Shown here piece after piece: positions 4,761 to 30,412 of a stretch of DNA of 42,481 nt (its first letter is position 1; every line of letters begins with the position of its first letter). The notes beneath the pieces were generated by a model. It saw only the letters and a program-made list of their open reading frames with translations. It ran no database searches and was not told the DNA's origin. The DNA lies in assembly GCA_024280495.1 (NCBI GenBank), contig JAJRPZ010000068.1:1-42481 (forward strand). Reading direction: 5' to 3'. The position numbers and the translations under genes were made by a program. Source of the stretch: Alphaproteobacteria bacterium (lineage in GTDB: Bacteria > Pseudomonadota > Alphaproteobacteria > Caedimonadales > UBA9215).

Positions 4761-6083
4761 TTGCACTAATTGATCAGTTTTATTCTCTAATTTGCCCTTG
4801 AGGGGTTTCATGAAATAACAAGCCAGCAAAGCAATTAATAGAGAAAGTGTAACAACGGACAAGCCATAAATATAAGAATCAGCTGAGTAGACTACGCTTT
4901 CGTTCATTGTCGCACTAGCTCCTTTATCCATAAAATAACCAATAATCGGTTGCGATAGAACGCCACTAAACATACACATCATATTGTGCACACCAGAGGA
5001 CGTTGCCGTTCTCGAACGACAATTTAAGGCCGATATAGCTGAGAAGGAGAGAAATTGCCCCCCCAATCCAAGACCACAAATCAGAAGTAATACTCCAACG
5101 GTAAATAACGTTAATTCTGGTAAATAAAGCATTGCAGCAAAACTGAGAAAAGAAATTAAACCAGCAAAAAACAATGACTTACGATAACTTTCTAATTTTG
5201 CATGTACAAAGGACCATAGAGGGGCGCTTATACCAACGCCAAGATAAATCAACCATGACATATCCGTCGCAATGGCACGACTCACACTATAAGTATCTTC
5301 AATATAGGCTGCCCCCCAGAGATCGCAAAAACCACTTAATGGCATGTACATGGCAAGACCATAAATTCCTATAACCCAGGACATAGGCTCTGTGAAAATT
5401 GCTTTAAAAGATTGAGTTACATGAGTTACTTCTTGTTTCACAGACCGTATTTTTTTAGGTGAAACAATTTTCACATCTTTCACTATAAACCAAGACAGCA
5501 CGGCAAGAACACCACCACTTATGGCTAAAAGTTGCAGAGCAGACTGCCAACCTAATACATCTAATAAATAAACAAGAGGTGATCCTGCGACTTTGGCTCC
5601 TAGGGTTCCAGCAAGGAGGGTAAGCCCCACAAACAAGGGCATTTTTTTCGGATCAAACCAGAGGGAAGCTACTTTTACATTACTGAGAAACGCAAATGAA
5701 GAACCGATCCCCATCATTAATCGAGCAAGAGTTAGAATAATAGAACTTTCTGCAATGGCGAAAAGTAAAACACCAAGGGAACACATGATGATTGCAAATA
5801 CAACGGGCAATTTGACGCCGACACGATCCAAGATAATGCCTGCTGGAAGTTGCATCACAACATAGCCGATATAGTAAAATGACATAATGCTACCAAGGGT
5901 AACGGCATCAAAGCCATAAGCGACCATCAGGCTGTCGGTACAAGCATTGGGAGAAACACGTAAAATAAATTGAAAGAAGTAAAAGAGAGCGACACTTCCC
6001 CAAATAAGCAGGCCTTTTTTAAATTTTTCTTCTTTGGTTAAATTGTTATGTTGAGCACCTTTAGATGCTAAATGAGAAGTCAT
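4755..6083 (-). CDS. MFS transporter (substrate unknown)
   Basis: 442 aa with about 12 hydrophobic segments. MFS loop motif AGIILDRVG. Confidence 0.8.
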   Translation of the reverse strand: MTSHLASKGAQHNNLTKEEKFKKGLLIWGSVALFYFFQFILRVSPNACTDSLMVAYGFDAVTLGSIMSFYYIGYVVMQLPAGIILDRVGVKLPVVFAIIMCSLGVLLFAIAESSIILTLARLMMGIGSSFAFLSNVKVASLWFDPKKMPLFVGLTLLAGTLGAKVAGSPLVYLLDVLGWQSALQLLAISGGVLAVLSWFIVKDVKIVSPKKIRSVKQEVTHVTQSFKAIFTEPMSWVIGIYGLAMYMPLSGFCDLWGAAYIEDTYSVSRAIATDMSWLIYLGVGISAPLWSFVHAKLESYRKSLFFAGLISFLSFAAMLYLPELTLFTVGVLLLICGLGLGGQFLSFSAISALNCRSRTATSSGVHNMMCMFSGVLSQPIIGYFMDKGASATMNESVVYSADSYIYGLSVVTLSLLIALLACYFMKPLKGKLENKTDQLVQL

Positions 6084-6319
6084 AGGATACCTTGTTTTTT
6101 GTTTCCATCTTTTTGCGAGAAGTCATAATTGATTTATCTACAAAAGCACGGGACTTATATTTCAAGAGAGACTCAAACACGTTCTTCCCCGATAAACACC
6201 ATCAAATTATATGGTGTAAAATGACTATTTGTAAAGAAAATTAAAATATTTTTTAATAAAAAGTTCATTATTAATCCTGAGTGCTTCACTTTTTTACCAG
6301 AAAATGCTATGTTCAATCT

Positions 6320-6649
6320 ATGTTATTACGAGATCTGCGCCGACGCGCCAGAAAATACTCTTTTCAGAGCCTGACTCTCTGTCTTGTTCTTTATTTCCTC
6401 TTTCACCTGATCCAAGGGGCACGGGGTATTGTGACTCTAAGATCCCTAGAAACAGCCCTTGAAACATCAAAAAAAAACTTAACGACCTTAAAGGGAAAAC
6501 ACGCTCAATTGGGACACAGAGTAAGCCTTATGAAACCAGGGGCGGTATGCCCAGATATTCTTGAAGAGCAAGTGAAATCTGTTTTAGGGTATACTCGTAA
6601 AGGTGAGAAAATTGTCGTCCAACCTAAAAAAAAGACTCTTTTGCCATAG
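6320..6649 (+). CDS. ftsB: septum formation initiator family protein (FtsB/DivIC-like)
   Basis: One TM segment (LTLCLVLYFLFHLI) followed by a coiled coil and the family-typical ...DILEEQVKSVLGY.. tail. The ORF is open from GTG 6281; ATG 6320 gives a typical length of about 109 aa. Start is uncertain. Confidence 0.6.
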   Translation: MLLRDLRRRARKYSFQSLTLCLVLYFLFHLIQGARGIVTLRSLETALETSKKNLTTLKGKHAQLGHRVSLMKPGAVCPDILEEQVKSVLGYTRKGEKIVVQPKKKTLLP

Positions 6650-6735
6650 AGGACCCATAAATTCGGCTGCAGTATTTTCATGATAAATCTGTTAGTCTAT
6701 CTTTGTACAAAAATAGCTCATTAGGTTTTAGAACT

Positions 6736-7515
6736 ATGTCAGAAAAACACATTTCCATTAATCATCATTTTGAAAAAAACCACGCTGATAAATTCCCTTT
6801 TAAACGTGTCTGTTTGAAACTTTCAGGGGAAGCTCTTATGGGGAGAGAGTCTTTTGGCTTAGACCCTGCCGTAGTTTCACGTGTCGCCAGTGAGATTAAA
6901 ACCGTTTATGAAAGCGGTATAGAGCTCTGCATCGTTATTGGTGGCGGTAATATTTTTCGTGGTATTAGTGGCGCTAGCCAAGGTATGGACCGCACCAGCT
7001 CTGATTACATGGGGATGATGGCAACGGTTATTAATGCCCTTGCCCTTCAAAATGCTCTAGAGCGCATTGATGTAAATGCCCGCGTTCAATCTGCCATTCC
7101 CATGGAAACCGTTTGCGAATCTTATATTCGCCGAAGAGCCGTGAATCACCTCAAGAAAAAACGGGTTATCATTTTTGCAGCAGGAACTGGAAACCCTTAC
7201 TTTACAACGGATACAACGGCCGTTTTGCGCGCATCAGAAATGAATTGCGACATTCTATTGAAAGGTACTAAAGTTGATGGTATTTACACAGCTGATCCGA
7301 CAACAAATCCAGATGCCACAAAATACAATCACCTTACTTATGAAACAGTTATTCGAGATAAGCTTAACGTTATGGATATGGCTGCCATTGCTCTTGCAAG
7401 GGATAATAAACTTCCTCTCATGGTTTTTTCCATCAATGAGCCTGGAACTTTTAAAAAGTGCCTTGAGGGATCGGGAAACTGTACAGTTGTCGATACTTGC
7501 GATCTTTTCACATAA
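6736..7515 (+). CDS. pyrH: UMP kinase
   Basis: KRVCLKLSGEALMG, IVIGGGNIFRG and GNPYFTTDTTAVLRA motifs. The ORF track starts at TTG 6703; ATG 6736 is the more likely start. Confidence 0.95.
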   Translation: MSEKHISINHHFEKNHADKFPFKRVCLKLSGEALMGRESFGLDPAVVSRVASEIKTVYESGIELCIVIGGGNIFRGISGASQGMDRTSSDYMGMMATVINALALQNALERIDVNARVQSAIPMETVCESYIRRRAVNHLKKKRVIIFAAGTGNPYFTTDTTAVLRASEMNCDILLKGTKVDGIYTADPTTNPDATKYNHLTYETVIRDKLNVMDMAAIALARDNKLPLMVFSINEPGTFKKCLEGSGNCTVVDTCDLFT

Positions 7516-7616
7516 TCAACCTCTCCCCAGTGGATTGACTATATTCCCTTGCGATTCTAAATTTCTCGGTATATCTTCTAATTAGAAAATAAAATTTTGA
7601 TATAAAAGACTTAACT

Positions 7617-8171
7617 ATGACTTTCTTACTCTCTGATTATAAAAAAAACATGCAAAGCTCCCTAGACGCCCTTCATAAAGAATTTGTGGGTCTCCGTACG
7701 GGACGAGCTTCAACAAATCTTTTGGAACCCGTTACCGTTGAGGCTTATGGCTCTCGCATGCCTATGACGCAAGTCGGCACCGTGAGCGCCCCCGATGCAC
7801 GGCTATTGACTGTTCAAGTTTGGGATAAAGATATGGTAAAGGCCGTTGAAAAATCTATCCGTGAGGCTGGACTTGGTCTTAATCCAACAACAGAAGGTCA
7901 AGTTATCCGCATTCCCATTCCTGATCTCACAGAAGATCGCCGTAAGGAATTAACAAAAATTGCTTCGAAATTCGCAGAGCAAACCAAAATTTCAGTCCGT
8001 AACGTACGTCGTGATGCTATGGATGAAATCAAAATGCTTGAGAAAGACGGAGATATATCCGAAGATGATTTGCATCGCCACAACAAAGAGGTACAAGATT
8101 TGACTGATTCTTTTATCAAAAAAGTTGATGACATGCTTTCAGCTAAAGAAAAAGATATCTTAACTGTTTGA
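7617..8171 (+). CDS. frr: ribosome recycling factor
   Basis: 184 aa. [31 protein letters not shown] and VRNVRRDA motifs. Canonical pyrH-frr adjacency. Confidence 0.97.
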
Positions 8172-8221: not shown

Positions 8222-8860
8222 ATGGGATCTAGAGTTTTAAAATTATTATTTATCACCTTGATTCTTTTGTGCCTTTTGAGTATCTTTCTTTATTTCAACC
8301 GTCCCCCCTCTTCTCTTGAGGGTACGTCAAGTAATTCTATTGCCTCTGTTAAAGTTGGAAAATCCTATGGTCAAGCCACTATTGGTGGTCCCTTTAAATT
8401 AATAGACCAAAATGGGAAAACGAGGACTCAAGCCGACTTTAAGGGTAAATTCATGATTGTGTATTTTGGCTATAGTTTTTGTCCAGATATATGTCCAGCG
8501 GCTCTTTATAATATGACTCAAGCCTTTGATGAACTTTCTTCAAAGGAACTTTCTCAATTCGCCCCCCTTTTTATTACCATTGATCCCGAACGAGATTCCG
8601 TTGAAAACCTCAAAACTTATATGCAAAATTTTCACCCTGCCATCATTGCACTCACGGGGAGTAATGAGAAACTAACTCCTGTCATCAAGGCTTATCGGGT
8701 TTATGCTAAGAAAGCAAAACCAGACGGAACCGCAACGGAGTATTTATTAGATCATTCTTCCATTGTTTACCTTATGGACCGTCAAGGACGCTTTATCACT
8801 TCCTTTAATCACCAAACAGATCCAGAAACAATAGTAAAAACATTACGAGCTGTTCTCTAG
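8222..8860 (+). CDS. SCO1/SenC family copper chaperone (thioredoxin fold)
   Basis: N-terminal TM anchor. FGYSFCPDICP (CxxxC) and the downstream His in LLDHSSIVYLMDRQG are typical of SCO proteins. Confidence 0.88.
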   Translation: MGSRVLKLLFITLILLCLLSIFLYFNRPPSSLEGTSSNSIASVKVGKSYGQATIGGPFKLIDQNGKTRTQADFKGKFMIVYFGYSFCPDICPAALYNMTQAFDELSSKELSQFAPLFITIDPERDSVENLKTYMQNFHPAIIALTGSNEKLTPVIKAYRVYAKKAKPDGTATEYLLDHSSIVYLMDRQGRFITSFNHQTDPETIVKTLRAVL

Positions 8861-8889
8861 TTCATTTCATAAAAAAGACAAATCCTTTC

Positions 8890-8996
8890 TATAGTCATTC
8901 CCAAAACATTCCAGTCTAGGAGCGAGGGACCAACGCCTATAACTTATAGGCGCGGGAGTGATTGACGACGTCTGGAATGTTTTGGGAATGACTATA
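8890..8996. repeat. reference copy B of the dispersed palindromic MITE/RPE-like element (107 bp)
   Basis: Perfect 25-bp terminal inverted repeats, TATAGTCATTCCCAAAACATTCCAG at 8890-8914 and CTGGAATGTTTTGGGAATGACTATA at 8972-8996. Central palindrome GCCTATAACTTATAGGC at 8935-8951. Related copies at 909, 4705, 22964 and 38855. Confidence 0.8.
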
Positions 8997-9201
8997 TTTA
9001 TGATGGTTCCTTTTTGGAATCTCTATAATCCCTACCATTTCCTCCCCCCTCCTTCTCTCTTATTATTCTGTGACTATTTCTTTTGTTTTTGACAATGAGT
9101 TTTATGCAATTCGACCCTTCGTTATTAAAACTTGTATAAATAATGCCTAGTAATTATATATGTAGTGTAAATACTTATTAAACAAAACAAGGGTCTATGA
9201 T

Positions 9202-9969
9202 ATGAAAAACCAAATTTCAAAAAAATCTATTTTTGCACTATTATCAACTGTTGCAGTTCTAGGAAGTGTAACAGTTCAAGCAACTAACTATGACTATGAT
9301 GACGATGATTTTTATTATCACAATATGGGCTTTGGTGGGGAATCTCAAGATATCTCCTTTATTCCTACTCCTAGTGAAACAAACGAGATTATTACTAATG
9401 CTCCAAAACAAATAGGAGACTCAGTGGTTTCTAAAATTGAAGAATATGTTCCTGGAGGATCTTACCTAACGGGTGCGACAAAGAAATTTTCAGGTTTTTT
9501 CGGTTACGGCTCTTTGACTGAAATGGTTGTAGATACGGCTAGCAAACCTTTTAAAATTAAAAAAGATGAGTGTCCTGATACTTATACAGGATATGTAAAA
9601 GAACTAGCAATTCAAAATGCAAATAGTTTTGTAGGATTTTTTCCAGGCATAACAAAGGATGACGCAAAGGTCGTTAAAAAAATATTTTCTATACTGAAAA
9701 AATATGATCATGAAAAAGATACCTTAGAAGATATTATAGAACGTGAACTTATTAATAAAATACCATCAGGTTCTAAGATTGGTGGTATGACAGCCAAGCA
9801 ACTCGTTGATCGTCTTGTTCCAGGTGGTGAATACATAACAACTGCCACTGGTTTTCTTGCTAAAAAAACAACGGGTAAAGATACGTTAACAGAAGCCGTA
9901 CTCGCAAACATGGGAGGGATTTTTGACTATGACTTCAAAGATTTCTTTTATGCACAATACGGTAATTAA
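9202..9969 (+). CDS. secreted hypothetical protein with an internal duplication (VPGG-x-Y-x-T-x-AT ... LTE module) and an aromatic/Gly C-terminal tail
   Basis: 255 aa. AAGGG RBS 8 nt upstream. Sec-type signal MKNQISKKSIFALLSTVAVLGSVTVQA/TN. No recognisable catalytic motif. Confidence 0.7.
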   Translation: MKNQISKKSIFALLSTVAVLGSVTVQATNYDYDDDDFYYHNMGFGGESQDISFIPTPSETNEIITNAPKQIGDSVVSKIEEYVPGGSYLTGATKKFSGFFGYGSLTEMVVDTASKPFKIKKDECPDTYTGYVKELAIQNANSFVGFFPGITKDDAKVVKKIFSILKKYDHEKDTLEDIIERELINKIPSGSKIGGMTAKQLVDRLVPGGEYITTATGFLAKKTTGKDTLTEAVLANMGGIFDYDFKDFFYAQYGN

Positions 9970-10100
9970 TAAGAATTTCCCCCTATGAGGAATCTTCATC
10001 GGGGGATTCATAAAAAAGAATTTGCATTATTGACAATATGTCATTATATATTATGCAGTGAATAATAAATATAACATTTAAATCATTAGGGGATTTAACT

Positions 10101-11303
10101 ATGATGAAAAAACAACTAACAGCCTTTATTTTTGGCTCAACCGCCTTGGTAACTTCTATGAGCTTTTTGCCATTAGCAGATGTTCATGCGGGTAATTTCA
10201 CAGACTCTTTAGACATGAACAACCTTTCAAGAAGTGTTTTTGCTAATCCTGGTCAGGCCCGTGGCCATTCGGAAAATTTGTTTAATTCCATGCGTCATGA
10301 TAATAAAGTAAATGCATCAGCTTATACAAACGTTTCCATGTCAAAAGAGGATAAAATCCTTTGGGCAGCAAAATCAGCGGCTGCTACATACCGTTATATG
10401 GGTAGTGACACTGATACTGATCAATTTAAGGCTAATGGCAAAGTTTCAATAGAAAAGCGTCTTGATCTTGGTGAGCAATATGTGTTCGGTGGAACAAATA
10501 TTGAAGGAGACGAGTTCTCTCAGGGTGGCCACATATTTTATAAGTGGAACAAGGAAACTGGACGTCACGAATTGAATGTTGCATTTCGTGGTACAGAAAC
10601 TGGTGCGGACTGGGGATATAACTTTGATGTGAAAAAAGCTAAAAATGTCTTTTTCGCAGGAAAAGAAATGTCTTTACATTCTGGATTTTACAACCGTTAC
10701 ATGGCCATGAGAGACTCTTTAACAAAAAATATTAGTAAAATATTGCTAGAAAAAAATATTACAGATTTTAGCAAACTTGATATTACTGTTACGGGGCATA
10801 GTCTTGGTGCTGGCCTTGCTGGTATTGGAGCCGTTGATTTAAAATATTATTTTAATCAAATTGCTCGTTTTCATAAGTCAGAACCAGTTACATCATTTGA
10901 TGTTATCACATTCGCACAACCAAGATTTGCAGGAGAAAGAACTGCAAAGTGGATTAGTAATTATTTAGGTAATGACCATATCACCAGAATTTGGGGGTCA
11001 TATGATCCAGTAGCTGCTGTTGGCCTTGGAAAAATGGGTTATAAACATGTTGGACGCAGCGGTGGATATATGCTGGATAACCTCAGTTGGGTTATATCTA
11101 AAGACTATAAAGCCCTTCACTCCATGGGTAATTACTTAGATGCAATCTTGAACAAACAAAAATTAATTCACTACAAGGGAAAAGTTCATGGTGTCGGGCG
11201 TCAAGCTACGAGAGCTGCTAATGCACTTAAAAGCCAAGCCACGAAAGCAACTAAAGGTGTTACAAATATCTTTAAAAATGCCTGGGGAAAAGTTTGGGGC
11301 TAA
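10101..11303 (+). CDS. secreted class-3 (fungal-type) lipase family protein
   Basis: 400 aa. AGGGGA RBS. Signal peptide ...SMSFLPLADVHA/GN. Nucleophile elbow ITVTGHSLGAGLAG preceded by AFRGTE, as in Lipase_3 proteins. Confidence 0.85.
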   Translation: MMKKQLTAFIFGSTALVTSMSFLPLADVHAGNFTDSLDMNNLSRSVFANPGQARGHSENLFNSMRHDNKVNASAYTNVSMSKEDKILWAAKSAAATYRYMGSDTDTDQFKANGKVSIEKRLDLGEQYVFGGTNIEGDEFSQGGHIFYKWNKETGRHELNVAFRGTETGADWGYNFDVKKAKNVFFAGKEMSLHSGFYNRYMAMRDSLTKNISKILLEKNITDFSKLDITVTGHSLGAGLAGIGAVDLKYYFNQIARFHKSEPVTSFDVITFAQPRFAGERTAKWISNYLGNDHITRIWGSYDPVAAVGLGKMGYKHVGRSGGYMLDNLSWVISKDYKALHSMGNYLDAILNKQKLIHYKGKVHGVGRQATRAANALKSQATKATKGVTNIFKNAWGKVWG

Positions 11304-11327
11304 CCTAAGAAGCTAAAACAAATAAAA

Positions 11328-11352
11328 GGCGGCAAAGGTCGTCTTTTTTTTT
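11328..11352 (+). terminator. rho-independent terminator after the lipase gene
   Basis: GGCGGC-AAAG-GTCGTC hairpin (two G-U pairs) followed by T9 at 11344-11352. Confidence 0.55.
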
Positions 11353-11502
11353 GCAAAAAAAACATTCTAACTGACAAGTAATTAAATAATTAATGTGTTT
11401 TTTATTATTTTGAACTTGAATATTAAAGTATTAATAACTATATATTTAATGGACTAGGTTTGACATAAGCAACAATTATTTTTTAATAAGGGGAATATGA
11501 AT

Positions 11503-13479
11503 ATGAAGAGACAAATTAGTGTAGGCGCGATCATTATTAGCATGGTTTTTTTTGCACCTAATGCATATGCAACGTCAATTTCTGTTGAGAATGAAGAAAG
11601 TTTTGTAACAAGTCGTGGCATAAATGTTTCAACATTACAAGATTGTCAATATGACTCAGCCTCTTTTAGAGTGAGAGCTGACAAATCTAATTTACCCCAT
11701 GAAAAACGTCGTATTCTTTCCTTAGATGGTGGCGGTATTCGCGGGCTTTATGAAATTGCTATGCTGGCCGTTTTAGAAGAAATTATTTTATCTAATAATG
11801 TCGGCAACCCAGACGCTCGCATTTCGGATTATTTTGACGTTGCTGGTGGCACATCGACAGGTTCCATTCTTGCAGCAGGTCTATTTTACGAAGGTAGTCA
11901 AGGCACAAAATATTCTGCCATTGACCTTTTGAAACTATATTCACGTTATGGTAGTGAGATTTTTGATGATCACAAAAAAACACTCGGTGGTGCATATGGT
12001 TCAAAATACACAGCAACTGGTCTAAATGATTTATTGGTCGCGCACTTTAATGATGATCACCTTAATAATACAGTTGTGGATAATTTTGGTGATCCAAAAC
12101 ATATTTATGTTATTGGATTCGATTGCAGTGAGCATAAACCTGCTGTTTTCTCCACGACTCCACTTGAAAATCCCCTTGAACGTCAATACAATTACCATAC
12201 TCGTGCATTAGTTGAAGCTATTGGCGTATCAACAGCAGCACCAGTTTTCTTTCCTGCATGTGATGTTATAAAAAACTATAAAACTGTTCAAATGAAAGAT
12301 GGTGGCTTGGTTGCCAACAATCCTTCCTACCTTGTGTATCAAGCAGAAAATTCAAGCTATGGTGGCATAACTGGTGCAAATTATGAAATTTACTCCTTCG
12401 GAACGGGTGTTACTCCTATTGAGATGGGCGAAAATAACATGGGAGTTACTGCTGTTAAGCCCCTAATAGAAGAAGTTTTTTCGGCACAGGTTAGTGCTAC
12501 AGTAAGAAGCTGTTACGATGAAGTCATCACACCCAATAGTAAGTTAACTTACTTTGTCCGATTTCAACCTCAACTTGAAAAGGGTATGGGGGAAATGGAT
12601 GATACCAGTGATTCTTATGTAAATTATGCAATAAACAAAGCATATGAAGTGGTGAAAGGAGAGGTGTTTGCAGATATGTTGATCCAGCTTGGTCTTGAGA
12701 CTCCAGAAAATTTCGACGAAATATTTAATGATATTGGATTTAAACTCCATTCTCTTTCGTCAAAAAAGTATGAAAACTTTAAATATTTTGAAAAAAAATG
12801 GCTCCTTCGAGAAATATCTAAACTTAACTTTGAGCTATTTGAAAATGTAAATGTCAACGGTGAAATTTTAACCGATGAGGAAACTGTTTCCATATTGTTT
12901 GCAGCTATGGGCACGGCTGAAAAAGAAAACGAGGCAATGTTTAATAAGATTTTATCTTTATTTAAGACCACAAAAAATGACTTTATCTCTCAAGTCATAC
13001 CAAGAGGTCTAGATTTTCACAATAAAGTAAAATCACGTGAGACATTGAATATCGACGAAGAGCCTTTAGCTGGCTTAGTTAAAGATATTTTTGCTGAATT
13101 TAGAGAGTTGTGTGATTCTAAATCAAATGAGAATGGTTACACCTATTATGAACATAAGAGTAAATATATAGATCTTGTTGCCGATATATATTGGAAAAAT
13201 AAATTAAAAAATATAAAAGGAGAGGATGCTTTTAATTATTTAAATGATTTATACCGATCACTCTTTAAAGAAGCCGTAAATACCAATATTGAAAAAGCAA
13301 AACTTAATAAATGGGTAGCTGAAGTCTTTTATGCGTCACGTGAATTTATTCTTAAGGATCAACTTGCCGCTTATATCAAAAAATATTTCCCTAATGAAGA
13401 CTTTACTGAATTGAGCTCAAAAGTTGGTGATAAAGTTGGAGAAATATTTGATTATTTCAAAGGTTGGTTCGGCTATTAA
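11503..13479 (+). CDS. secreted patatin-like phospholipase with a ~250-aa uncharacterised C-terminal extension
   Basis: Oxyanion motif LSLDGGGIRG, nucleophile GGTSTGS (G-x-S-x-G) and catalytic Asp in MKDGGLVANNP. Signal peptide ...FFAPNAYA/TS. The AAGGGG RBS spacing favours ATG 11503 over ATG 11497. Confidence 0.88.
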   Translation: MKRQISVGAIIISMVFFAPNAYATSISVENEESFVTSRGINVSTLQDCQYDSASFRVRADKSNLPHEKRRILSLDGGGIRGLYEIAMLAVLEEIILSNNVGNPDARISDYFDVAGGTSTGSILAAGLFYEGSQGTKYSAIDLLKLYSRYGSEIFDDHKKTLGGAYGSKYTATGLNDLLVAHFNDDHLNNTVVDNFGDPKHIYVIGFDCSEHKPAVFSTTPLENPLERQYNYHTRALVEAIGVSTAAPVFFPACDVIKNYKTVQMKDGGLVANNPSYLVYQAENSSYGGITGANYEIYSFGTGVTPIEMGENNMGVTAVKPLIEEVFSAQVSATVRSCYDEVITPNSKLTYFVRFQPQLEKGMGEMDDTSDSYVNYAINKAYEVVKGEVFADMLIQLGLETPENFDEIFNDIGFKLHSLSSKKYENFKYFEKKWLLREISKLNFELFENVNVNGEILTDEETVSILFAAMGTAEKENEAMFNKILSLFKTTKNDFISQVIPRGLDFHNKVKSRETLNIDEEPLAGLVKDIFAEFRELCDSKSNENGYTYYEHKSKYIDLVADIYWKNKLKNIKGEDAFNYLNDLYRSLFKEAVNTNIEKAKLNKWVAEVFYASREFILKDQLAAYIKKYFPNEDFTELSSKVGDKVGEIFDYFKGWFGY

Positions 13480-13518
13480 CAGTTGAAATCATAAATAAGA
13501 AAGATAACTAGCAAACAT

Positions 13519-13542
13519 CCGCGGGGCAAGCCCCGCGGTTTT
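13519..13542 (+). terminator. rho-independent terminator after the patatin gene
   Basis: Perfect 8-bp GC-rich stem CCGCGGGG/CCCCGCGG, loop CAAG, then TTTT. Confidence 0.75.
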
Positions 13543-13568
13543 ACATCAGCTTTATAAAGGACTATATT

Positions 13569-14654
13569 ATGGAATTAAGTAAGAAATTATTTGTCGCAGT
13601 TTTATCATTTTGGTCTATTGCTGGCAATGCCACGTCTATAGATACTGATAATTCAGAATTAATAACACAAAAAAGTTATAGCGAAATCTTACCTCTTGAG
13701 AAACAGCAATACCTTACTGATCTCGGTTACCACGTTCTAGGACGTTTGACCCATGGTGAGGAAATTGATTTTCAAAATGAAACTTTTTTTGACGGTTTAA
13801 ACTTAAATGAATTTAAAGCTGACGTGGAATATTCGAAATTGGCTAAATTTGCCATTTTTTCAAATAATACTCGTTGGTTACTCTCAAGTTCCGATGATTC
13901 CTATAATCAAGAACGCAAAAATCGATTGACGGCAATTGCTGCCATCATGTGGGCTTTCACTGATCTTTCTCATAAGAAAAATAGTGTTTTTTCAAGGGGG
14001 GCTTATACAATAATGGACCCTAACCATAATGTTGCTAATTTTTTTATGGATTACGTAAAGCTTGTAACGGGGTCAGATAATCCAACTGAAACACACTGTG
14101 CCCTAACAAAAAGCAATTTTGCCTATCGCAGACTTCCAGAAAAAGGCGGATCAAGTCATCACAAAGGACGCACACCCTTGGGGCAATTTGGAATTGATCT
14201 ACGTTTTGAATCTTGGGAAACTTTGATGAGTATATTGCCTTTTTCCATGGCACATATTTTATTTGGCCAATTAGATATAGAAGAAGACCAACACCTTTTA
14301 TTTGTAAAACCAGAACCCGTTGGCCTCGGAAGTAAAGGTGAGTTTATGGATCACAGCTGTCATTTTTTAAACAGTGGTCATGTTGAAAATGATACACGTC
14401 GTGAAAAAGATATTAATCCAAAAATAATAACAGCATTTCAAAATATTATAGAAACATCCGATTTGGAAAATTCAGCCACTACTGTAAGAGATATGATATT
14501 AACCGCAAAAGAAATTGAAAATAAAAATTTTATTTCAGAAACAACAAGAGGTGCAATAAATGATTTCAATGATGTTATTGAAAGCTTATATTCAGAAGAT
14601 AACAATGAAATTCGCATTGGTAACGAAGTTATCCTAGACTTAAGTCAACTTTAA
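13569..14654 (+). CDS. secreted hypothetical protein (no recognisable domain)
   Basis: 361 aa. AAAGGA RBS 8 nt upstream. Signal peptide MELSKKLFVAVLSFWSIAGNA/TS. It has its own terminator-bounded upstream region. Confidence 0.7.
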   Translation: MELSKKLFVAVLSFWSIAGNATSIDTDNSELITQKSYSEILPLEKQQYLTDLGYHVLGRLTHGEEIDFQNETFFDGLNLNEFKADVEYSKLAKFAIFSNNTRWLLSSSDDSYNQERKNRLTAIAAIMWAFTDLSHKKNSVFSRGAYTIMDPNHNVANFFMDYVKLVTGSDNPTETHCALTKSNFAYRRLPEKGGSSHHKGRTPLGQFGIDLRFESWETLMSILPFSMAHILFGQLDIEEDQHLLFVKPEPVGLGSKGEFMDHSCHFLNSGHVENDTRREKDINPKIITAFQNIIETSDLENSATTVRDMILTAKEIENKNFISETTRGAINDFNDVIESLYSEDNNEIRIGNEVILDLSQL

Positions 14655-14732: not shown

Positions 14733-15248
14733 ATGTCACCACTTCCTTATTATGAAAAAGCCTGTAATGAAAATCAACCAGGCTCTATTTTCGCCCATTG
14801 GAACTGGTCTGCTTTTCTTTTTGGTCCCCTTTGGTTTGCCTATCGCAAAAGTTATTTCTACGCCTTCCTATTTCTATATGTAGAGATTCTTTATGGTGCT
14901 TTCCTTGTGGAATTAGGGTCTGGATTTTTTCAATATAAACTCACGGCCCTCCTCCCCCTTCGTATTCTCATTGGTTTTGTTGGAACCTCTTTATACCTTA
15001 GAAAATGGATAAATGGACGCCGATCCCATGCTAAACACACGTCTATTATAGCCTTAATTTTATTTAGTATCTTTAATGCAATGTTTTCCAATGCCCTTCT
15101 TGAAAAGCCCGTCTTTCCTGATGTGACCTGGCCTTTAAAACGTGAATTTTACTACTACTATTATGATGACCGTACCAATGGTACTATCTCTATAGAGTCA
15201 GAAAAAACCATGAAAAAAGTGAAAGAATCTCCTTATTTTGAGGTATAA
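14733..15248 (+). CDS. DUF2628 domain-containing membrane protein
   Basis: HWNWSAFLFGPLWFAYRKSYFY is the DUF2628 signature, with further TM segments. Unusual Tyr/Asp run EFYYYYYDD near the C-terminus. Confidence 0.7.
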   Translation: MSPLPYYEKACNENQPGSIFAHWNWSAFLFGPLWFAYRKSYFYAFLFLYVEILYGAFLVELGSGFFQYKLTALLPLRILIGFVGTSLYLRKWINGRRSHAKHTSIIALILFSIFNAMFSNALLEKPVFPDVTWPLKREFYYYYYDDRTNGTISIESEKTMKKVKESPYFEV

Positions 15249-15314: not shown

Positions 15315-16148
15315 ATGGAATTTATTGACATGCCTGTAGATGCAAACGGATTAATGACTGGTAAACGTGGAATTATTTTGGGCGTTGCCAATAAAAACTC
15401 CCTTGCGTGGGGGATCGCACAACAGCTTCATGATCAAGGTGCAGAAATTGCTTTTACCTATGCTGGTGACGCCCTTAAAAAACGTGTTGAGCCCCTGGCG
15501 GAAAGCATAAATTCTAATCTTGTTTTACCTTGCGATGTCACTAAGGAAGAAGATATCAAATCCGTTTTTCAAACATTAAAGGAGAAATGGGGCACCATTG
15601 ATTTTATTCTCCATGCCATTGGATTTTCAGACAAAAATCAGCTCTCTGGCTATTATTACGAAACAACCCGTGATAATTTTCTGATGACCATGGATATTTC
15701 TTGTTTTTCCCTCACGGCAATTGCACGAGAAGCAGCCCCCCTTATGAATGAAGGCGGTAGTATTTTAACATTAACTTATTATGGGTCGGAAAAAGTTATG
15801 CCCCATTATAATGTCATGGGTGTTGCCAAAGCTGCCCTTGAGGCAAGTGTTAGGTATCTTGCAGCGGACCTAGGTCCCAAACAAATTCGTGTCAACGCCC
15901 TTTCTGCAGGTCCCGTTAAAACATTAGCTGCCGCTGGCATTAGTGATTTCCGCCAAATACTTCAGTGGAACGAACAAAATTCTCCCTTGCGCCGTAATAT
16001 TGGCCTGGATGAAGTTGGTAAATCGGGTCTGTATCTTTTGAGTGACTTATCCAGTGGCGTAACTGGTGAAAACCATCATGTGGATTGTGGGTATCACACA
16101 GTTGGCATGAAGGCTATTAATCCATCCCATGATACAAAAGTTGATTAA
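15315..16148 (+). CDS. fabI: enoyl-[acyl-carrier-protein] reductase (NADH) FabI
   Basis: GKRGIILGVANKNSLAWGIA glycine-rich N-terminus, YNVMGVAKAALE (Tyr-x6-Lys), SAGPVKTLAA. The start could be ATG 15330. Confidence 0.92.
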   Translation: MEFIDMPVDANGLMTGKRGIILGVANKNSLAWGIAQQLHDQGAEIAFTYAGDALKKRVEPLAESINSNLVLPCDVTKEEDIKSVFQTLKEKWGTIDFILHAIGFSDKNQLSGYYYETTRDNFLMTMDISCFSLTAIAREAAPLMNEGGSILTLTYYGSEKVMPHYNVMGVAKAALEASVRYLAADLGPKQIRVNALSAGPVKTLAAAGISDFRQILQWNEQNSPLRRNIGLDEVGKSGLYLLSDLSSGVTGENHHVDCGYHTVGMKAINPSHDTKVD

Positions 16149-16153
16149 TATAA

Positions 16154-16906
16154 ATGCCTAAAGCCCTTCCTTCCCCTCAGATGTTATCAGAGCTTAACCC
16201 TGACGCCATACCACGTCACGTAGCTTTGATTATGGATGGGAACGGGCGCTGGGCAAGTGAACGCCATCAGCCTCGACTTTTTGGACATAAAAAAGGCGTG
16301 GAGGCCCTTAAAAAAGCTATAAATTATGCACTTAAGGCTAACATTCCTTTTTTAAGTGCTTGGGCTTTTTCTACGGCAAATTGGAAGCGTCCCAAATCCG
16401 AAGTTTCGGGTCTCATGACTATTTTACGTCATACTCTTGAAAAAGATATCGATGAATTTCATGAGAAAGGTATTTGCCTTCGCGTTATCGGTTTTTTGAA
16501 TGACCTGGATAAAAACTTACAAAAAATCATCCAGAACGCACAAGAACGCACTAAAAATAATTCCGCACTCACCCTTATTATTCATTTTAACTATGATGGC
16601 CGAAAAGACATGGTTCAAGCCGTTCAAAAGCTCAGTGAAAAGGTAAAATCAGGGGAAATATTATCAGAGAGTATCACCGAAGATATGATCAGCCAAAACA
16701 CACTCATGGCAGAATTTACTGACCCTGAACTTCTCATTAGAACTTCTGGAGTTGTTCGCCTGAGTAATTACATGATGTGGCAATGTGCCTTTACAGAGCT
16801 TGTTTTTATTGAAAAGAACTGGCCTGATTTCACAGAAGAGGATTTTCATGGCGCGCTGCTCAAATTTCAAAAAACAGCTCGTAATTTTGGGCAAGTTTCC
16901 ACATAG
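16154..16906 (+). CDS. uppS: isoprenyl transferase / undecaprenyl-diphosphate synthase
   Basis: IPRHVALIMDGNGRWA, FSTANWKRP and LLIRTSG..RLSN motifs. Confidence 0.95.
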   Translation: MPKALPSPQMLSELNPDAIPRHVALIMDGNGRWASERHQPRLFGHKKGVEALKKAINYALKANIPFLSAWAFSTANWKRPKSEVSGLMTILRHTLEKDIDEFHEKGICLRVIGFLNDLDKNLQKIIQNAQERTKNNSALTLIIHFNYDGRKDMVQAVQKLSEKVKSGEILSESITEDMISQNTLMAEFTDPELLIRTSGVVRLSNYMMWQCAFTELVFIEKNWPDFTEEDFHGALLKFQKTARNFGQVST

Positions 16907-16994
16907 AGTCATTTCAAAAAGGTTCCATATTGCATCTGCCTCCCTATTCTGATGTAGCTACCCTAAGTTATGACTCATAAATTAGGAGCATCCA

Positions 16995-17290
16995 ATGACA
17001 AAAAGACAAATAACCCATTATCCCAATGAATTCAAAAAATCCCCAGCTAAGTTGGCAGTTGAATCCAAGGAATCAGTTGCCCAGATAGCTAAAAACCTTG
17101 GCGTTCACGTTGCAACCCTCCATGGCTGGGTCAAAAAATATAATCCCAAGACCACACCATCTGTAAAAAAATTTCACAGAACTGCCCCTTAGAAGAGCTG
17201 AAGCAACTTAGAAAAGAAAACGCACGCTTATGTGAGAAACGGGATATCTTTAAAAAAAGCAGCGTCAAATGTGTCCGTAAAAAGGTTGAC
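16995..17290 (+). mobile_element. degraded IS3-family transposase OrfA remnant (HTH plus leucine-zipper part only, frameshifted, no OrfB)
   Basis: MTKRQITHYPNEFKKSPAKLAVESKESVAQIAKNLGVHVATLHGWVKKY matches the Transposase_8 HTH pattern. It continues in another frame as EELKQLRKENARLCEKRDIFKK, and LKKAAS is in a third frame around an A7 run. No DDE integrase follows. Confidence 0.7.
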
Positions 17291-17384
17291 ACATCAATCA
17301 CTCGTGGTTTTAATCCTCCTTATATCTGTTATAGTGACAATATTACTATTGCTAAAAACACCCAACCAGATGGACCTAAATATA

Positions 17385-18230
17385 ATGCCTTCTAAAAACC
17401 CATCACTTAAGACCAAAATCGGTATTGTTGCTGGTAATGGTGATTTAGTGCGGGATGTTATTCAATGTTGTCTTTCTCAAAAAATCCCTTTTCATGTATT
17501 GGCTTATGAAGGACAAACTGACACCAAGCTTATCCAAAACACCCCACATACTTGGCTGAAATTAGGACAAGCTGGAAAAGCTCTCAAAACATTCAAGGAA
17601 AATAATGTAACAACTGTCGTCATGGCTGGTTACTTTAATCGTCCAAGTTGGAGTGATATCAAACCAGATATCAAAGGTGTCAAACTTTTATCAAAGCTTG
17701 TGGGAAAACCCATGGGGGATGATGGTCTTTTTCGAGTTATTATTGATTTTTTTGAGCAGGAAGGATTTGACGTCATAAGCCCCGAAGATATTATAGGGGG
17801 TGACACTCTTATTGCCGAAGGTATCCTAACTCAAAAAAAACCTTCGGAACAAGATTACATCGATATTCAAAGGGGCTTTAAAGTTGCAAAAGGCATTGGC
17901 CGCCTAGATATAGGACAAAGTGTTGTTATGCAAAATGGCCTTGTGCTTGGAGTCGAAGCCCTTGAAGGGTCCGATAACCTTATCAAACGTACTGCTGATC
18001 TAAAAGCAGATAAACAAGGTGGCGTTTTTGTAAAAGTCATAAAACCAGGTCAAGATACCAGAGTTGATCGGTCTGTCATTGGTCCTGAAACCGTTTTAAA
18101 TGCAGCTAATGCTGGCCTTTCAGGCATTGCAGCCGAAACTAAAAGCATCATAATTATCAACAAAGATCAAACCATTGCCCTTGCCAATGAAAAAGGGCTC
18201 TTTATTATTGGGATTTCCTATGACCTCTAA
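17385..18230 (+). CDS. lpxI: UDP-2,3-diacylglucosamine pyrophosphatase LpxI (DUF1009)
   Basis: KIGIVAGNGDLVRDV N-terminus, DIGQSVVMQNGLVLGVEALEGSDNLIKR, DRSVIGPETV. The ORF is open from GTG 17232, but that part overlaps the IS remnant. ATG 17385 gives the typical length of about 281 aa. Confidence 0.82.
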   Translation: MPSKNPSLKTKIGIVAGNGDLVRDVIQCCLSQKIPFHVLAYEGQTDTKLIQNTPHTWLKLGQAGKALKTFKENNVTTVVMAGYFNRPSWSDIKPDIKGVKLLSKLVGKPMGDDGLFRVIIDFFEQEGFDVISPEDIIGGDTLIAEGILTQKKPSEQDYIDIQRGFKVAKGIGRLDIGQSVVMQNGLVLGVEALEGSDNLIKRTADLKADKQGGVFVKVIKPGQDTRVDRSVIGPETVLNAANAGLSGIAAETKSIIIINKDQTIALANEKGLFIIGISYDL

Positions 18231-19425
18231 ATCAATATCCTCAACTGACTCTCAATGCAATTCAACCATTTACGTCATTGCAGGCGAAGAAAGCGGCGAT
18301 CAAATTGGGGGGGGCCTCCTTCGCGCTCTCAAAAAGAAAGCTCCTAAAGACACTTTGAAATTCGAGGGCGTCGGTGGTGACACTATGAAAGCAGAGGGGC
18401 TGCTAAGTCTTTTCCCCATGAAAGAGCTTTCCATTATGGGGCTCTTTGAAATTATTCCCCATGCCTTGAATATTTTTGCGCGCCTTAACCAAACCGTTGA
18501 AGATATCAAACGATTACGCCCATCCGTAGTTGTAACAATTGATGCTCCAGGTTTTAATTTTCGTTTGGCAAAACGCATTAAGGCCCTAAACATTCCAGTC
18601 ATTCATATCAGCGCACCCACGGTTTGGGCTTGGAAACCAAGGCGTGCCGAAAAAGTTGCGGGATATTTAACTCATCTTTTGACCCTTTTTCATTTTGAAC
18701 CACCTTATTTCACAAAGCATGGCCTAAAAACGACTTTCATGGGTCATCCACTTGTTGAAAAAAAACTAGAAGAATTATCAAAGACAACGTATCGCAAGAA
18801 CCATAAAATAAAAAATAAACAGCCCCTCCTCTGTCTTTTGCCAGGGAGCCGCCCCTCGGAAATTAAAACCCATTTACCTATTTTTTTGGACACTGTTGAG
18901 ATATTAAAACTGCAATTCCCAGATCTTGAAGTTGTTATTCCAACTCTAGAATCCTTTAAAAATCAAATTACATACGACCTAAAACAACGTGGTATTTCAG
19001 GATATGTAACCTCCGATGAAAATGAGAAATACCTTTCTATGGGTGCGGCAACTGTGGCTATTGCAACAAGTGGGACCGTTACTCTCGAACTTGGTCTGTG
19101 TGATACCCCTATGATTGTAGCCTATAAAACAAATAAATTGACGGCTATTATTGTTAAAAAAATGCTTATGACAAAGCACGTTTCTTTGGTCAATATTTTA
19201 CTAGAAAAAGAGGTGGTTCCAGAATTTTTACAAGAAGAATGCACCCCTGAAATTCTTTCTTTACGCCTCCATAAACTCCTAACTAAAAACTCAGAATGCC
19301 ATGAAATTCAAGAAAAAGAACTTTTAAAACTCTCTTCCCTCATAAAATCAGATGATAAAAAAATGCCAAGCGACATTGCAGCAGACATTATATTGGAACA
19401 TGTATCCAAAGACATTGCTCATTAA
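18220..19425 (+). CDS. lpxB: lipid-A-disaccharide synthase
   Basis: IYVIAGEESGDQIGGGLLRAL N-terminus and LLPGSRPSEI motif. ATG 18220 overlaps the lpxI stop by 11 nt. Confidence 0.92.
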   Translation: MTSKSISSTDSQCNSTIYVIAGEESGDQIGGGLLRALKKKAPKDTLKFEGVGGDTMKAEGLLSLFPMKELSIMGLFEIIPHALNIFARLNQTVEDIKRLRPSVVVTIDAPGFNFRLAKRIKALNIPVIHISAPTVWAWKPRRAEKVAGYLTHLLTLFHFEPPYFTKHGLKTTFMGHPLVEKKLEELSKTTYRKNHKIKNKQPLLCLLPGSRPSEIKTHLPIFLDTVEILKLQFPDLEVVIPTLESFKNQITYDLKQRGISGYVTSDENEKYLSMGAATVAIATSGTVTLELGLCDTPMIVAYKTNKLTAIIVKKMLMTKHVSLVNILLEKEVVPEFLQEECTPEILSLRLHKLLTKNSECHEIQEKELLKLSSLIKSDDKKMPSDIAADIILEHVSKDIAH

Positions 19426-28480: not shown

Positions 28481-30412
28481 CTATGCTGTTTGAAGAAGCG
28501 CCTTTTTAACTTCCGGGCCTTCTTCTAAAAGCTGGTGAGTTGATTTATTAAAATCAGTTCCAATGGGCTCTGCCCTCCCCCCAAGATGCTCTTGCAGGAA
28601 AAGTTCCGTTAAAGCATAAAAACTCATCTTATTTTCAGGGCGCGCAAACCCATGTCCTTCATCGGGATACAATACATAAGTTACAGGAATATTTCTAGCT
28701 TTCAGAGCCGAAGCAAATTGATCAGATTCAGCTTGTTTCACTCGAGGATCATTGGCACCTTGGGCAATTAATAATGGTTTTTTAATTTGATCGGCTTTAT
28801 GGATAGGAGACCTGCTTTCAAGGTTATTTAAACCTTCTTTGGAGTCCAAATGACCACCAACACGGCGTTTTAGCATATCCAAAATAGGTTTCCAATAGGC
28901 GGGCACCGTTTCCATAAGTGTTTTCAAATTAGAGGGTCCCACTATATCAACGCCACAAGCAAAAACATCAGGGGTATAGGTTAGGCCAACAAGAGTTGCA
29001 TATCCGCCATAACTGCCACCATAAATACAAATTTGATCCTTTGTGGTAATCCCTTCATCAAGGGACCAATTAACTGCATCCAATAAATCATCATGCATTT
29101 TTCGAGACCATTCGCCGTCTCCTGCATTAGTAAATACTTTTCCAATGCCCGTAGAGCCCCTATAGTTTACTGATAAAACAGCATACCCTCGATTGGCAAG
29201 CCATTGGGTTGCTGCATTATATCCCCAATGATCACGAGCTTGCGGTCCACCATGAACCATCAAAATCAGTGGAACAGGGTTGCTCTTTGTAAAACCAACT
29301 GGTTTTGTGCAATAGCAAGGCATCTCGAGGCCATCACGGGTGGTAATAATAACGGGCTCCATGGGGGCAAGCTCAAGATTTTCAAGGCTTTTTTGCGAGG
29401 TAAAAAGTTTTTGAATATTTCGTATAGCACGCTCATAAAGGTAATAAATTGCAGGACCTTGGTCTTGATGACTTACAACAATCCATCTTTTGTCATCCTG
29501 GGTTCGACTAATAATCTCAATGTCCTCCCCCCCGCATTCCATCTTTAAAAGACGCATTTCATCATGAATGTGACGATCCATATAGCGCCACTCTTTTTTC
29601 AGATATGTCGAGGTCCACCCTTCAAATTCTTTTGTTTCAGGGGTCAATAAAACATCGGTAATATCAGCCTTAGGACATTCTGCCAGCAAAGTTTTAGCTT
29701 GAGTATCAATATCAACCTTGTAGAAAGCCGTTGTGTTACGTCCCCGACTGTCCAGTTGAAAAAGCGAATTTCCATCCTTTGAAAAACCAATGGGATTAGT
29801 ACCAAGAGCATCCTCGTACGGCACATGATCAAATTTAGAGAAAGACCCTTTTTCATGCTTGTCCAGCTGAGTTGACCCATCTGACAGAATTCTCACACCA
29901 AAACGCAAATTAAATTTGTCATCAAACAATAAGCCAACAAATTCGTTATTTTCAAAGAGAACGTCACATTCTCCTGTTTCAATCGTCACCAAATGTGCAT
30001 CGTGGAATTCTGGCACCCGGCTATTTACAGAGATAATAACTTTATGTGGATTTTCAGGTGATACCATTGATAAACGAGCAGAAACATACTTATATGGCGT
30101 TAAGTCCACATCCTTTTCCGTCGCGATATCAACACTATGCACATGCCAATTCTCATCTCCTTCGTTGTCTTTGGAATAAAGAATATGAGAATTTGTATGG
30201 GCCCATGAAAAAGAGGCCAAGCCTCGAGAGGATTCCTTCGTAAGGACCCTTGCCTGATTTAAATCCATGGACGGCGCCACCCAGATATTCATCACACCTT
30301 TATAGGGCGCTATATAAGCAATATGTTTTCCATCAGGTGATAACCGTACGCACACATGGTCTGGATTAGAAAAAAATATTTTTCTGGAAATAAGAGGGGT
30401 AGAAGAAGTCAT
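28481..30412 (-). CDS. S9 family serine peptidase (prolyl oligopeptidase / dipeptidyl aminopeptidase-like): beta-propeller plus alpha/beta hydrolase domain
   Basis: 643 aa. ICIYGGSYGGYATL nucleophile motif (G-x-S-x-G-G), later Asp (GANDPRV) and His (DEGHGF). Confidence 0.88.
   Translation of the reverse strand: MTSSTPLISRKIFFSNPDHVCVRLSPDGKHIAYIAPYKGVMNIWVAPSMDLNQARVLTKESSRGLASFSWAHTNSHILYSKDNEGDENWHVHSVDIATEKDVDLTPYKYVSARLSMVSPENPHKVIISVNSRVPEFHDAHLVTIETGECDVLFENNEFVGLLFDDKFNLRFGVRILSDGSTQLDKHEKGSFSKFDHVPYEDALGTNPIGFSKDGNSLFQLDSRGRNTTAFYKVDIDTQAKTLLAECPKADITDVLLTPETKEFEGWTSTYLKKEWRYMDRHIHDEMRLLKMECGGEDIEIISRTQDDKRWIVVSHQDQGPAIYYLYERAIRNIQKLFTSQKSLENLELAPMEPVIITTRDGLEMPCYCTKPVGFTKSNPVPLILMVHGGPQARDHWGYNAATQWLANRGYAVLSVNYRGSTGIGKVFTNAGDGEWSRKMHDDLLDAVNWSLDEGITTKDQICIYGGSYGGYATLVGLTYTPDVFACGVDIVGPSNLKTLMETVPAYWKPILDMLKRRVGGHLDSKEGLNNLESRSPIHKADQIKKPLLIAQGANDPRVKQAESDQFASALKARNIPVTYVLYPDEGHGFARPENKMSFYALTELFLQEHLGGRAEPIGTDFNKSTHQLLEEGPEVKKALLQTA

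Follow-up and report, generated by a model that had tools for sequence, protein, structure and literature searches.

What are four consecutive genes for exported proteins, two of them members of lipase families, doing between frr and uppS, which adjoin one another in most of the alphaproteobacterial relatives that we compared? The question is raised by a contig of 42,481 nucleotides (nt) from an alphaproteobacterium (GenBank assembly GCA_024280495.1, contig JAJRPZ010000068.1), referred to here in its full length as the window. The four genes lie on its + strand. They encode the product of the first open reading frame, ORF1 (9202-9969; 255 amino acids, aa), an exported protein without an assigned family; a class-3 lipase (10101-11303; 400 aa; PF01764); a long patatin-like phospholipase (11497-13479; 660 aa; PF01734); and ORF4 (13569-14654; 361 aa), which belongs to a large uncharacterised family. 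Gene order and sequence comparison show the lipase, the long patatin and ORF4 to recur as a cassette, in conserved order, among uncultured alphaproteobacteria. On balance, we consider it probable that they constitute an exported set of lipid-degrading enzymes aimed at a eukaryotic host.

The evidence for a cassette comes from other genomes. At L002/L003/L004 (GCA_021323455.1) the gene order is lipase_3, an unknown gene, a second lipase_3, patatin (729 aa), ORF4 and TetR, and the ORF4 protein is 42% identical to that of the window. At L005 the order is lipase_3, patatin (as two ORFs), ORF4 (41% identical) and TetR. The locus L096 is otherwise syntenic with L005 and lacks ORF4, having lipase_3, patatin and TetR. 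At L090 an ORF4 of 33% identity precedes a patatin of 734 aa, and at L001 an ORF4 orthologue (65% identical) comes before a lipase orthologue that is 63% identical to the lipase of the window. In addition, the ORF4 relative P0008 and the long patatin P0182 each lie on an NCBI contig of 6936 nt, probably the same one. The patatin gene of L005 is split at 5932-7843 into a 367-aa catalytic ORF and a 264-aa helical ORF, and it is intact in L096; the split is either a frameshift/pseudogene or an assembly error. The genes around the cassette differ at every locus. TetR directly follows the cassette in three relatives, with no TetR at that position in the window, and the DUF2628 and fabI genes that follow in the window are outside the cassette at other loci. 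An initial annotation of this DNA had read the four genes as an island of independent transcription units; the recurrence of lipase, patatin and ORF4 in conserved order, with ORF1 outside, shows that they are not four unrelated genes. We found no published description of the conserved cassette, of the helical domain, discussed below, that is private to the long patatins, or of the ORF4 family.

All four proteins of the window have the layout of a signal peptide, with a basic N-terminus, a hydrophobic core and a small-x-small site. Cleavage is predicted at VQA↓T in ORF1, VHA↓G in the lipase, AYA↓T in the patatin and GNA↓T in ORF4. The best 10-residue Kyte-Doolittle mean was 1.98-2.80 for the four proteins, compared to 0.19-1.32 for the cytoplasmic controls encoded by frr, fabI and uppS. 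Neither a lipobox cysteine nor a twin-arginine motif is present in any of the four, and the cassette orthologues at the other loci are likewise signal-peptide-bearing by the same hydropathy heuristic. The ribosome-binding sites (in gene order AAGGG, AGGGGA, AAGGGGA and AAAGGA) are purine-rich and are located 4-11 nt before the starts. The spacers are 341, 131, 193 and 89 nt in length, at 24-39% GC. Two terminator-like hairpins are found on the + strand. The first follows the lipase gene at 11324-11352 (stem 11324-11347 of 10 pairs, then nine T residues), and the second occupies the gap between the patatin gene and ORF4 at 13519-13542 (stem 13519-13538 with 8 G-C pairs, then TTTT) and scores as a terminator on either strand. 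The region of 8-16 kb holds six terminator-like sites, where 5.1 are expected, which is not above chance; the case for termination therefore leans on the quality of these two hairpins. A promoter scan was also at chance (32 found, 29 expected), and an Rfam scan of 8-17.5 kb gave zero matches. In these matters the initial annotation was borne out: it had described four consecutive same-strand ORFs at 9202-14654, with classical Sec signal peptides, strong ribosome-binding sites and AT-rich spacers that hold two intrinsic terminators, and each of these elements was recovered.

The lipase matches the Pfam Lipase_3 family (PF01764) well above the curated cut-off (80.8 bits, cut-off 22, E 1.1e-22). 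It has the GHSLG elbow that had been noted before, at residue 232, followed by DPV at 302 and HSMGNY at 340. From the positions of these motifs, Asp302 and His340 are candidate members of the catalytic triad. Among solved structures, a phospholipase A1-IIgamma from a plant (2.5e-8) and mono/diacylglycerol lipases from fungi are nearest, which suggests sn-1 or diacylglycerol specificity for the enzyme. The window lipase has in common with the plant DAD1-like phospholipase A1 and the fungal mono/diacylglycerol lipases the Lipase_3 domain, the GHSLG motif and the candidate aspartate and histidine. It differs from them in its bacterial signal peptide, in an unmatched N-terminal segment of ~150 residues, and in the low identity reflected in the E value of 2.5e-8.

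The patatin, too, scores above the curated cut-off of its family (Pfam Patatin, PF01734; 64.1 bits, cut-off 27.7, E 2.6e-17). The GGGxRG, GxSxG and DGG motifs of the initial annotation are all present, as GGGIRG at 78, GTSTG at 118 (Ser120) and DGG at 268 (Asp268), and their residues are invariant across 12 long-form relatives of 638-805 aa, in all of which the C-terminal region accompanies the catalytic domain. Beyond the long-patatin group, the database matches that rank next are patatins of the plant Selaginella. The closest patatin, with 53% identity, is solitary and adjoins rpsB-tsf. In the AlphaFold2 model (predicted local distance difference test, pLDDT, 79; predicted template-modelling score, pTM, 0.78) the catalytic fold would span residues ~34-360 (nt ~11596-12576), preceded by a short beta-rich N-terminal extension and followed by an all-helical domain of ~260 residues (residues ~372-630; 12610-13386, + strand). 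Foldseek matched this model to the plant patatin 1oxw (E 3e-14, target template-modelling (TM) score 0.68-0.69), and also to CapV/CapE and iPLA2-beta. ExoU (4akx) was matched at E 1e-4 and TM 0.16-0.19, and VipD was not among the 50 matches listed; neither ExoU nor VipD appeared in a sequence search of solved structures with the patatin. The C-terminal region of ~250 aa had been impossible to place previously, and so it remained here: the helical domain alone has no PDB match by Foldseek and no Pfam family, and its profile finds only long patatins (L096, L095, L002, L005 and, weakly, L090).

By its predicted fold and motifs, the patatin is a bona fide patatin-family acyl hydrolase outside the ExoU/VipD, CapV and PlpD subtypes. 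Its best sequence and fold matches, Pat17 (1oxw) and CapV/CapE, have the same fold with the GGGxRG oxyanion loop, the GxSxG serine and the DGG aspartate; the window patatin adds to these a Sec signal, the beta-rich N-terminal extension and the private helical domain of ~260 residues, and, unlike CapV/CapE, it has no cyclic-nucleotide signalling partner beside it. The comparison with secreted effectors is looser. Rickettsia Pat1/Pat2, Legionella VipD and Pseudomonas ExoU are proposed to hydrolyse host membranes (PMC11077975, PMC7025538), and they resemble the window protein in that a helical C-terminal region comes after the patatin catalytic domain and in that their bacteria are eukaryote-associated. 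They differ from it in lacking Sec signals, in their type III/IV or unknown delivery routes and in their need for host cofactors. The window patatin has a Sec-type signal and no C-terminus homologous to that of ExoU or VipD, and no type III/IV genes are present in the window. The analogy to ExoU, VipD and Pat1 that had been drawn for this protein is weak on these grounds, with plant patatin and CapV as the closest catalytic domains. The C-terminal POTRA domain and Omp85-type beta-barrel of a type Vd autotransporter (PlpD) were not found: the last 260 residues are predicted to be all-helical, and Pfam gave no Omp85 or POTRA match.

The third member of the cassette is ORF4. A collection of 5.8 billion proteins contains 27 relatives, all of them from uncultured alphaproteobacteria. 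When a profile was run against 1.84 billion cluster representatives, the family grew to at least 782 clusters at E <= 1e-3, with 147 at E <= 1e-30. Among 172 family representatives at 20-40% identity, a set of positions is essentially fixed wherever it is covered: D150, Y162, Y186, R188, S195, S196, H197, Q206, G208, D210, R212, P224, H229, K247, E249, G252, H262, R349, G351 and E353. The fixed set comprises three histidines, two aspartates, two glutamates, three arginines, one lysine and two tyrosines. The AlphaFold2 model of ORF4 is confident (pLDDT 83.5, pTM 0.84) and depicts a helical N-terminal part and then a six-stranded alpha/beta domain, with most of the invariant residues predicted on or beside the strands. 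The initial annotation had left two of the four proteins without a function, and indeed neither Pfam nor NCBIfam has a match for ORF1 or ORF4; the ORF4 of the window has no PADLOC match either. None of 156 ORF4-family members (56 long ones searched against Pfam, 100 against NCBIfam) has a model that covers the domain. Comparison of the ORF4 model with PDB folds by Foldseek gave a best E of 0.13 with TM < 0.2, and profiles built from 28 and from 100 sequences retrieved only spurious designed helical proteins from among the solved structures. The structure search, which had been proposed as a check on the effector reading, thus gave ORF4 no PDB neighbour. Among viral models, Foldseek gave one weak match, to an uncharacterised protein of Chrysochromulina ericina virus (BFVD A0A0N9QY92, E 5e-4, TM 0.25). 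A tblastn search of plasmids and phages with ORF4 returned nothing, as did a scan of viral contigs, and a metagenome scan with one ORF4 peptide pattern found a single distant locus.

Members of the ORF4 family occur in more than one architecture. Approximately 54% have a signal-peptide-like N-terminus, and many of the others are long, signal-less and multi-domain. Among the 56 long members searched against Pfam, a single one is fused to ankyrin repeats and another single one to a dual-specificity phosphatase. Of P0127/P0163, two of the large proteins, one comes from Ca. Dependentiae bacterium Noda2021 (906 aa) and the other has ankyrin repeats (1028 aa). In five contexts ORF4 is found without a lipase: by an S8 protease, by an S9-like hydrolase, solitary in two cases, and as a tandem pair of paralogues (P0012/P0019; JGI 3300047160) on a contig that also encodes a TLC ATP/ADP translocase. 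The fusions, the Dependentiae member and the signal-less forms point to a distribution like that of the host-directed effector domains of intracellular bacteria.

The conservation of a histidine, aspartate, glutamate, arginine, lysine and tyrosine set at 20-25% overall identity has the character of a catalytic-site signature, from which we infer that ORF4 is enzyme-like. The histidine, aspartate and glutamate subset would suit metal binding, and this suggests a putative metal-dependent hydrolase. By visual inspection, the HKD motif of phospholipase D, the GNHE motif of metallophosphatases, HExxH and the R-S-E motif of ADP-ribosyltransferases do not fit the invariant positions. An attractive candidate identity, circumstantial and argued from published descriptions, is that of the Legionella zinc metallophospholipases C. 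The PlcA/PlcB/PlcC proteins and the ORF4 family would be alike in size and in having both exported, signal-bearing and translocated, signal-less members, and invariant histidine, aspartate and glutamate are present in ORF4. In the study that defined PlcA/PlcB/PlcC, 15 conserved residues are said to be essential for activity. PlcA/PlcB-like proteins have been reported in Caedimonas, a genus of the Holosporales (PMC6617341; see PMC7025538 for the background to the family). We put forward the following as a tentative proposal that may well fail in one part or another: ORF4 would be a new enzyme fold, a metal-dependent (phospho)lipid or phosphoester hydrolase that serves as a host-directed effector domain in protist-associated bacteria from two phyla or more (Holosporales-like Alphaproteobacteria and Dependentiae), and possibly in a giant virus. 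It would occur as a single-domain, Sec-exported protein or as a module of large signal-less proteins (with one ankyrin and one phosphatase fusion), and together with the class-3 lipase and the long patatin it would dismantle host glycerophospholipids stepwise.

The bacteria that carry these genes are relevant to this proposal. In a species-level genome collection, Caedibacter sp. 38-128 and Ca. Caedibacter acanthamoebae give the best matches to the window Frr, at no more than 68% identity; on this similarity, the source organism is an unsampled relative of the Caedibacter amoeba symbionts. The TLC ATP/ADP translocase is a hallmark of energy-parasitic intracellular bacteria. The affinity to Caedibacter, the TLC gene on the ORF4 contig and the family member in Dependentiae are the reasons for regarding the carriers as intracellular and protist-associated. 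The literature provides a setting for such enzymes: patatin-like phospholipases are reported to be common in Holosporales (PMC11724238) and to be laterally exchanged among amoeba symbionts (PMC5751055), and a phospholipase with a signal peptide is reported for Ca. Bodocaedibacter (PMC8163844). Secreted patatins and lipases of amoeba and protist symbionts are thus already known, and a lipase with a patatin alone would be ordinary. What the present locus adds is a defined genetic unit, often with TetR, in which to study the handling of host lipids by Holosporales-like symbionts, and a third partner, from a family of at least 782 clusters, for which there is a confident model without a known relative in fold and a clear set of candidate catalytic residues. 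If ORF4 is an enzyme and acts on host lipids or phospho-substrates, it would represent a new effector chemistry common to intracellular bacteria.

The scheme that we favor can be laid out as a sequence. All four proteins would leave the cytoplasm via Sec and would then be released from the envelope by a route not visible in the window. The lipase and the patatin would strip acyl chains from host glycerolipids, and ORF4, as a putative third hydrolase, might attack the head-group or phosphodiester part, or a different host target; the enzymes would be expected to act in sequence on host glycerolipids. The purpose could be damage to the vacuole or membrane, lipid scavenging, or both. In the three relatives that have TetR, control may be ligand-responsive. 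The type II-secreted PlaA, PlaC, LipA/LipB and PlcA/PlcB of Legionella are a precedent, in that they are likewise a Sec/Tat-exported lipolytic set, some of them eukaryote-like, in an amoeba-associated bacterium. They differ in that their genes are scattered, in that their type II dependence is demonstrated, and in that they belong to other families (GDSL and others, as opposed to class-3 lipase and patatin). The initial annotation had proposed an accessory host-membrane-attacking module. The accessory part of this proposal stands, as none of the relatives sampled has the genes between frr and uppS. A protist-associated lifestyle of the carriers is supported as well; the attack on membranes is still conjecture.

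Several points weigh against an enzyme set aimed at the host. A Sec signal takes a protein only as far as the periplasm, and the window holds no type II or other genes for export across the outer membrane. The signal peptides themselves were called by a home-made hydropathy heuristic. Catalysis by the lipase and the patatin is a prediction from motifs and family matches, and the biochemical role of ORF4 is argued only from the types of its conserved residues and from its gene neighbourhood. In about half of the ORF4 contexts that were examined, neither a lipase nor a patatin gene is close by. Class-3 lipases from different cassettes share only 22-25% identity, so that the sameness of the cassette is in part a matter of domain families.

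The first of these considerations leads to the alternative that survives best, though we regard it as unlikely: the enzymes would stay in the periplasm or at the outer membrane, where they would remodel or recycle the bacterium's own phospholipids and would not be directed at a host. From a Sec signal by itself, a periplasmic location would be expected; the window holds no genes for outer-membrane secretion, and envelope and lipid genes are in the vicinity (uppS, fabI, lpxI, lpxB, mlaA and mlaC). A housekeeping function of this kind should be core, yet the genes are missing from the locus in all relatives sampled and the membership of the cassette varies. The ORF4 family includes signal-less members, one of them ankyrin-fused and one phosphatase-fused. 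Three free lipolytic enzymes in the bacterium's own periplasm would also call for protection, and no inhibitor gene is evident.

A second alternative leaves the lipase and the patatin as enzymes and makes ORF4, and perhaps ORF1, a non-enzymatic helper of the neighbouring lipases, be it a foldase of the Lif type, an activator, or an immunity or inhibitor protein of the periplasm. In six contexts (one of them, the 6936-nt contig, by inference) ORF4 has a lipase or patatin gene as its immediate neighbour, and it has a signal peptide, as do the periplasmic Tli immunity proteins and the Lif foldases. However, ORF4 has no lipase-chaperone Pfam match, and its model has a six-stranded sheet, unlike the helical Lif scaffold. 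Its ~20 invariant polar residues, kept at 20-25% identity across 172 representatives, are a pattern typical of catalytic sites and one not expected of fast-evolving immunity proteins. Many family members have no lipase neighbour or are domains of large signal-less proteins, and L096 has the lipase and patatin without ORF4, which makes ORF4 dispensable for them. We judge a helper role to be quite improbable.

How the genes came to lie between frr and uppS is a separate matter. The initial annotation held that pyrH, frr and uppS are contiguous in many alphaproteobacteria, and this is so in nine of ten relatives, both of the closest included, with uppS ~10-180 nt past frr. The canonical order, as in L009, is pyrH-frr-uppS-cdsA-dxr-rseP-bamA-skp-lpxD-fabZ-lpxA-lpxI. 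In the window it is pyrH-frr-[SCO1-palindrome-ORF1-lipase-patatin-ORF4-DUF2628-fabI]-uppS-[IS3-type HTH fragment]-lpxI-lpxB, where HTH denotes helix-turn-helix and IS an insertion sequence. The interruption between frr and uppS is 8 kb in length and mixed in content. Besides the four exported genes it holds SCO1/SenC (8222-8860, + strand; PF02630, 3e-49), a housekeeping gene that forms the left flank of the four and is not found between frr and uppS in the relatives compared; the gene of a DUF2628 membrane protein (14733-15248, + strand), between ORF4 and fabI; and fabI itself (15315-16148, + strand), in the right-hand part of the interruption. A second disturbance lies beyond uppS, where the eight-gene block from cdsA to lpxA is missing from the gap between uppS and lpxI (window 16154-19425, compared to 1603-11543 in L009). 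At the junction left by the missing block, after uppS, is a helix-turn-helix fragment of IS3/IS66 type (16995-17192, 65 aa). The mixed interruption, the missing block and the insertion-sequence remnant together mark the locus as rearrangement-prone rather than as a clean insertion site.

A recent mobile island, in which the four genes arrived jointly by transfer through the palindrome at their left edge (a would-be miniature inverted-repeat transposable element, MITE) or through insertion-sequence activity, would be one way to explain the layout. The interruption of pyrH-frr-uppS only in the window, the position of the palindrome and the IS3-type fragment at 16995-17192 are consistent with it, and lateral transfer of patatins among amoeba symbionts is published (PMC5751055). 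None of the relatives sampled, of which the closest has only 68% Frr identity, carries the four exported genes between frr and uppS; the four do not, therefore, behave as core genes of the site, in line with the accessory status first proposed. Composition was the other check that had been suggested. The GC content at third codon positions (GC3) is 0.21-0.29 in the four genes, compared to 0.33 +/- 0.03 in the 32 other genes of the window (one-sided Mann-Whitney p = 0.0013). The deviation is modest: fliD and two unknown ORFs of the window are equally low in GC3, and the synonymous codon choice of the four genes is unremarkable. In three other genomes the GC3 of the cassette is 0.34-0.47, near the values of the genome in question and slightly below those of housekeeping neighbours. 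No integrase, adjacent tRNA or flanking direct repeat is present at the locus, where only short repeats at chance level were found; the nearest tRNAs are at 667-908 and 34700. The palindrome has a single copy in 42 kb, and housekeeping SCO1, DUF2628 and fabI share the interruption. The discrete four-gene insertion of the initial annotation is not upheld, and a recent mobile island appears a rather remote prospect. Since the GC3 of the cassette tracks that of each host genome and signatures of mobility are lacking, long residence is indicated rather than recent arrival. The best reading is of a long-resident accessory module in a rearrangement-prone locus.

Class-3 lipases and patatin-like enzymes are antibacterial effectors in other systems. 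It might be argued from this that the window enzymes are antibacterial weapons, either secreted or contact-delivered lipases of the Tle type, and the related Ca. Bodocaedibacter is reported to have a type VI secretion system (PMC8163844). Sec signals, however, are lacking in type VI effectors, the neighbourhood in the window holds no gene for VgrG, PAAR, Hcp or immunity, and the carriers, apparently intracellular symbionts, would meet few competitors, which makes an antibacterial role very improbable. An anti-phage function of the patatin, as a CapV-like effector of a cyclic-oligonucleotide-based antiphage signalling system (CBASS), has a negligible chance of being correct: the matches to NCBIfam CBASS_lipase (8.6e-34), to the PADLOC phospholipase effector (6e-46) and to CapV/CapE by Foldseek arise because the catalytic fold is shared, and plant patatin is an equally good match. 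At 117 bits, the NCBIfam score is far under the 200-bit cut-off, the protein has an extra domain of 260 residues, and no other defence gene is adjacent; the signal peptide and the lack of a cyclase effectively refute such a function.

The first of the four genes stands apart from the cassette to which we attribute the lipid-degrading function. A search of the 5.8 billion proteins with ORF1 gave one match, P0002 (39% identity), on a contig of 1.6 kb, and no ORF1 homologue is found in any other cassette locus. The protein has an internal duplication, VPGGxY[LI]TxAT...G..(S/T)LTE, at residues ~69-115 and ~185-235, which P0002 has kept, and the retention of the repeat indicates that ORF1 is a real gene. 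An acidic/aromatic stretch, NYDYDDDDFYYH, comes after the signal peptide. By these comparisons, ORF1 is a near-orphan, a lineage-specific and presumably secreted addition outside the conserved cassette.

The palindromic element (8871-9015) lies between SCO1 and ORF1. Its core at 8890-8996 has perfect arms of 25 nt (8890-8914 / 8972-8996) around a centre of 57 nt that holds a second small hairpin, and the arms extend to 44 nt at 82% complementarity. The predicted fold has an energy of -64.1 kcal/mol (z = -8.4). No further copies were found in the 42-kb window or in 96 other loci compared. The inverted repeat reported previously at 8890-8996 is thus real, and its designation as MITE-like could not be confirmed from a single copy. 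The element could be a bidirectional terminator, the relic of a repeat element, or both.

Elsewhere in the window, the gene for the flagellar cap protein, fliD, is located at 25902-27938, which indicates that the organism keeps at least part of the flagellar apparatus. An AT-rich stretch at 39500-41501 (GC 0.31) contains two overlapping minus-strand ORFs without a Pfam match (39875-41014 and 40899-41501), and a second AT-rich dip at 31.5-33 kb contains an unassigned ORF (31704-32264). On the minus strand at 28481-31702, a protein of the S9 prolyl-oligopeptidase family (643 aa) is encoded beside a fusion of an alpha/beta-hydrolase with an OsmC-like domain (407 aa).

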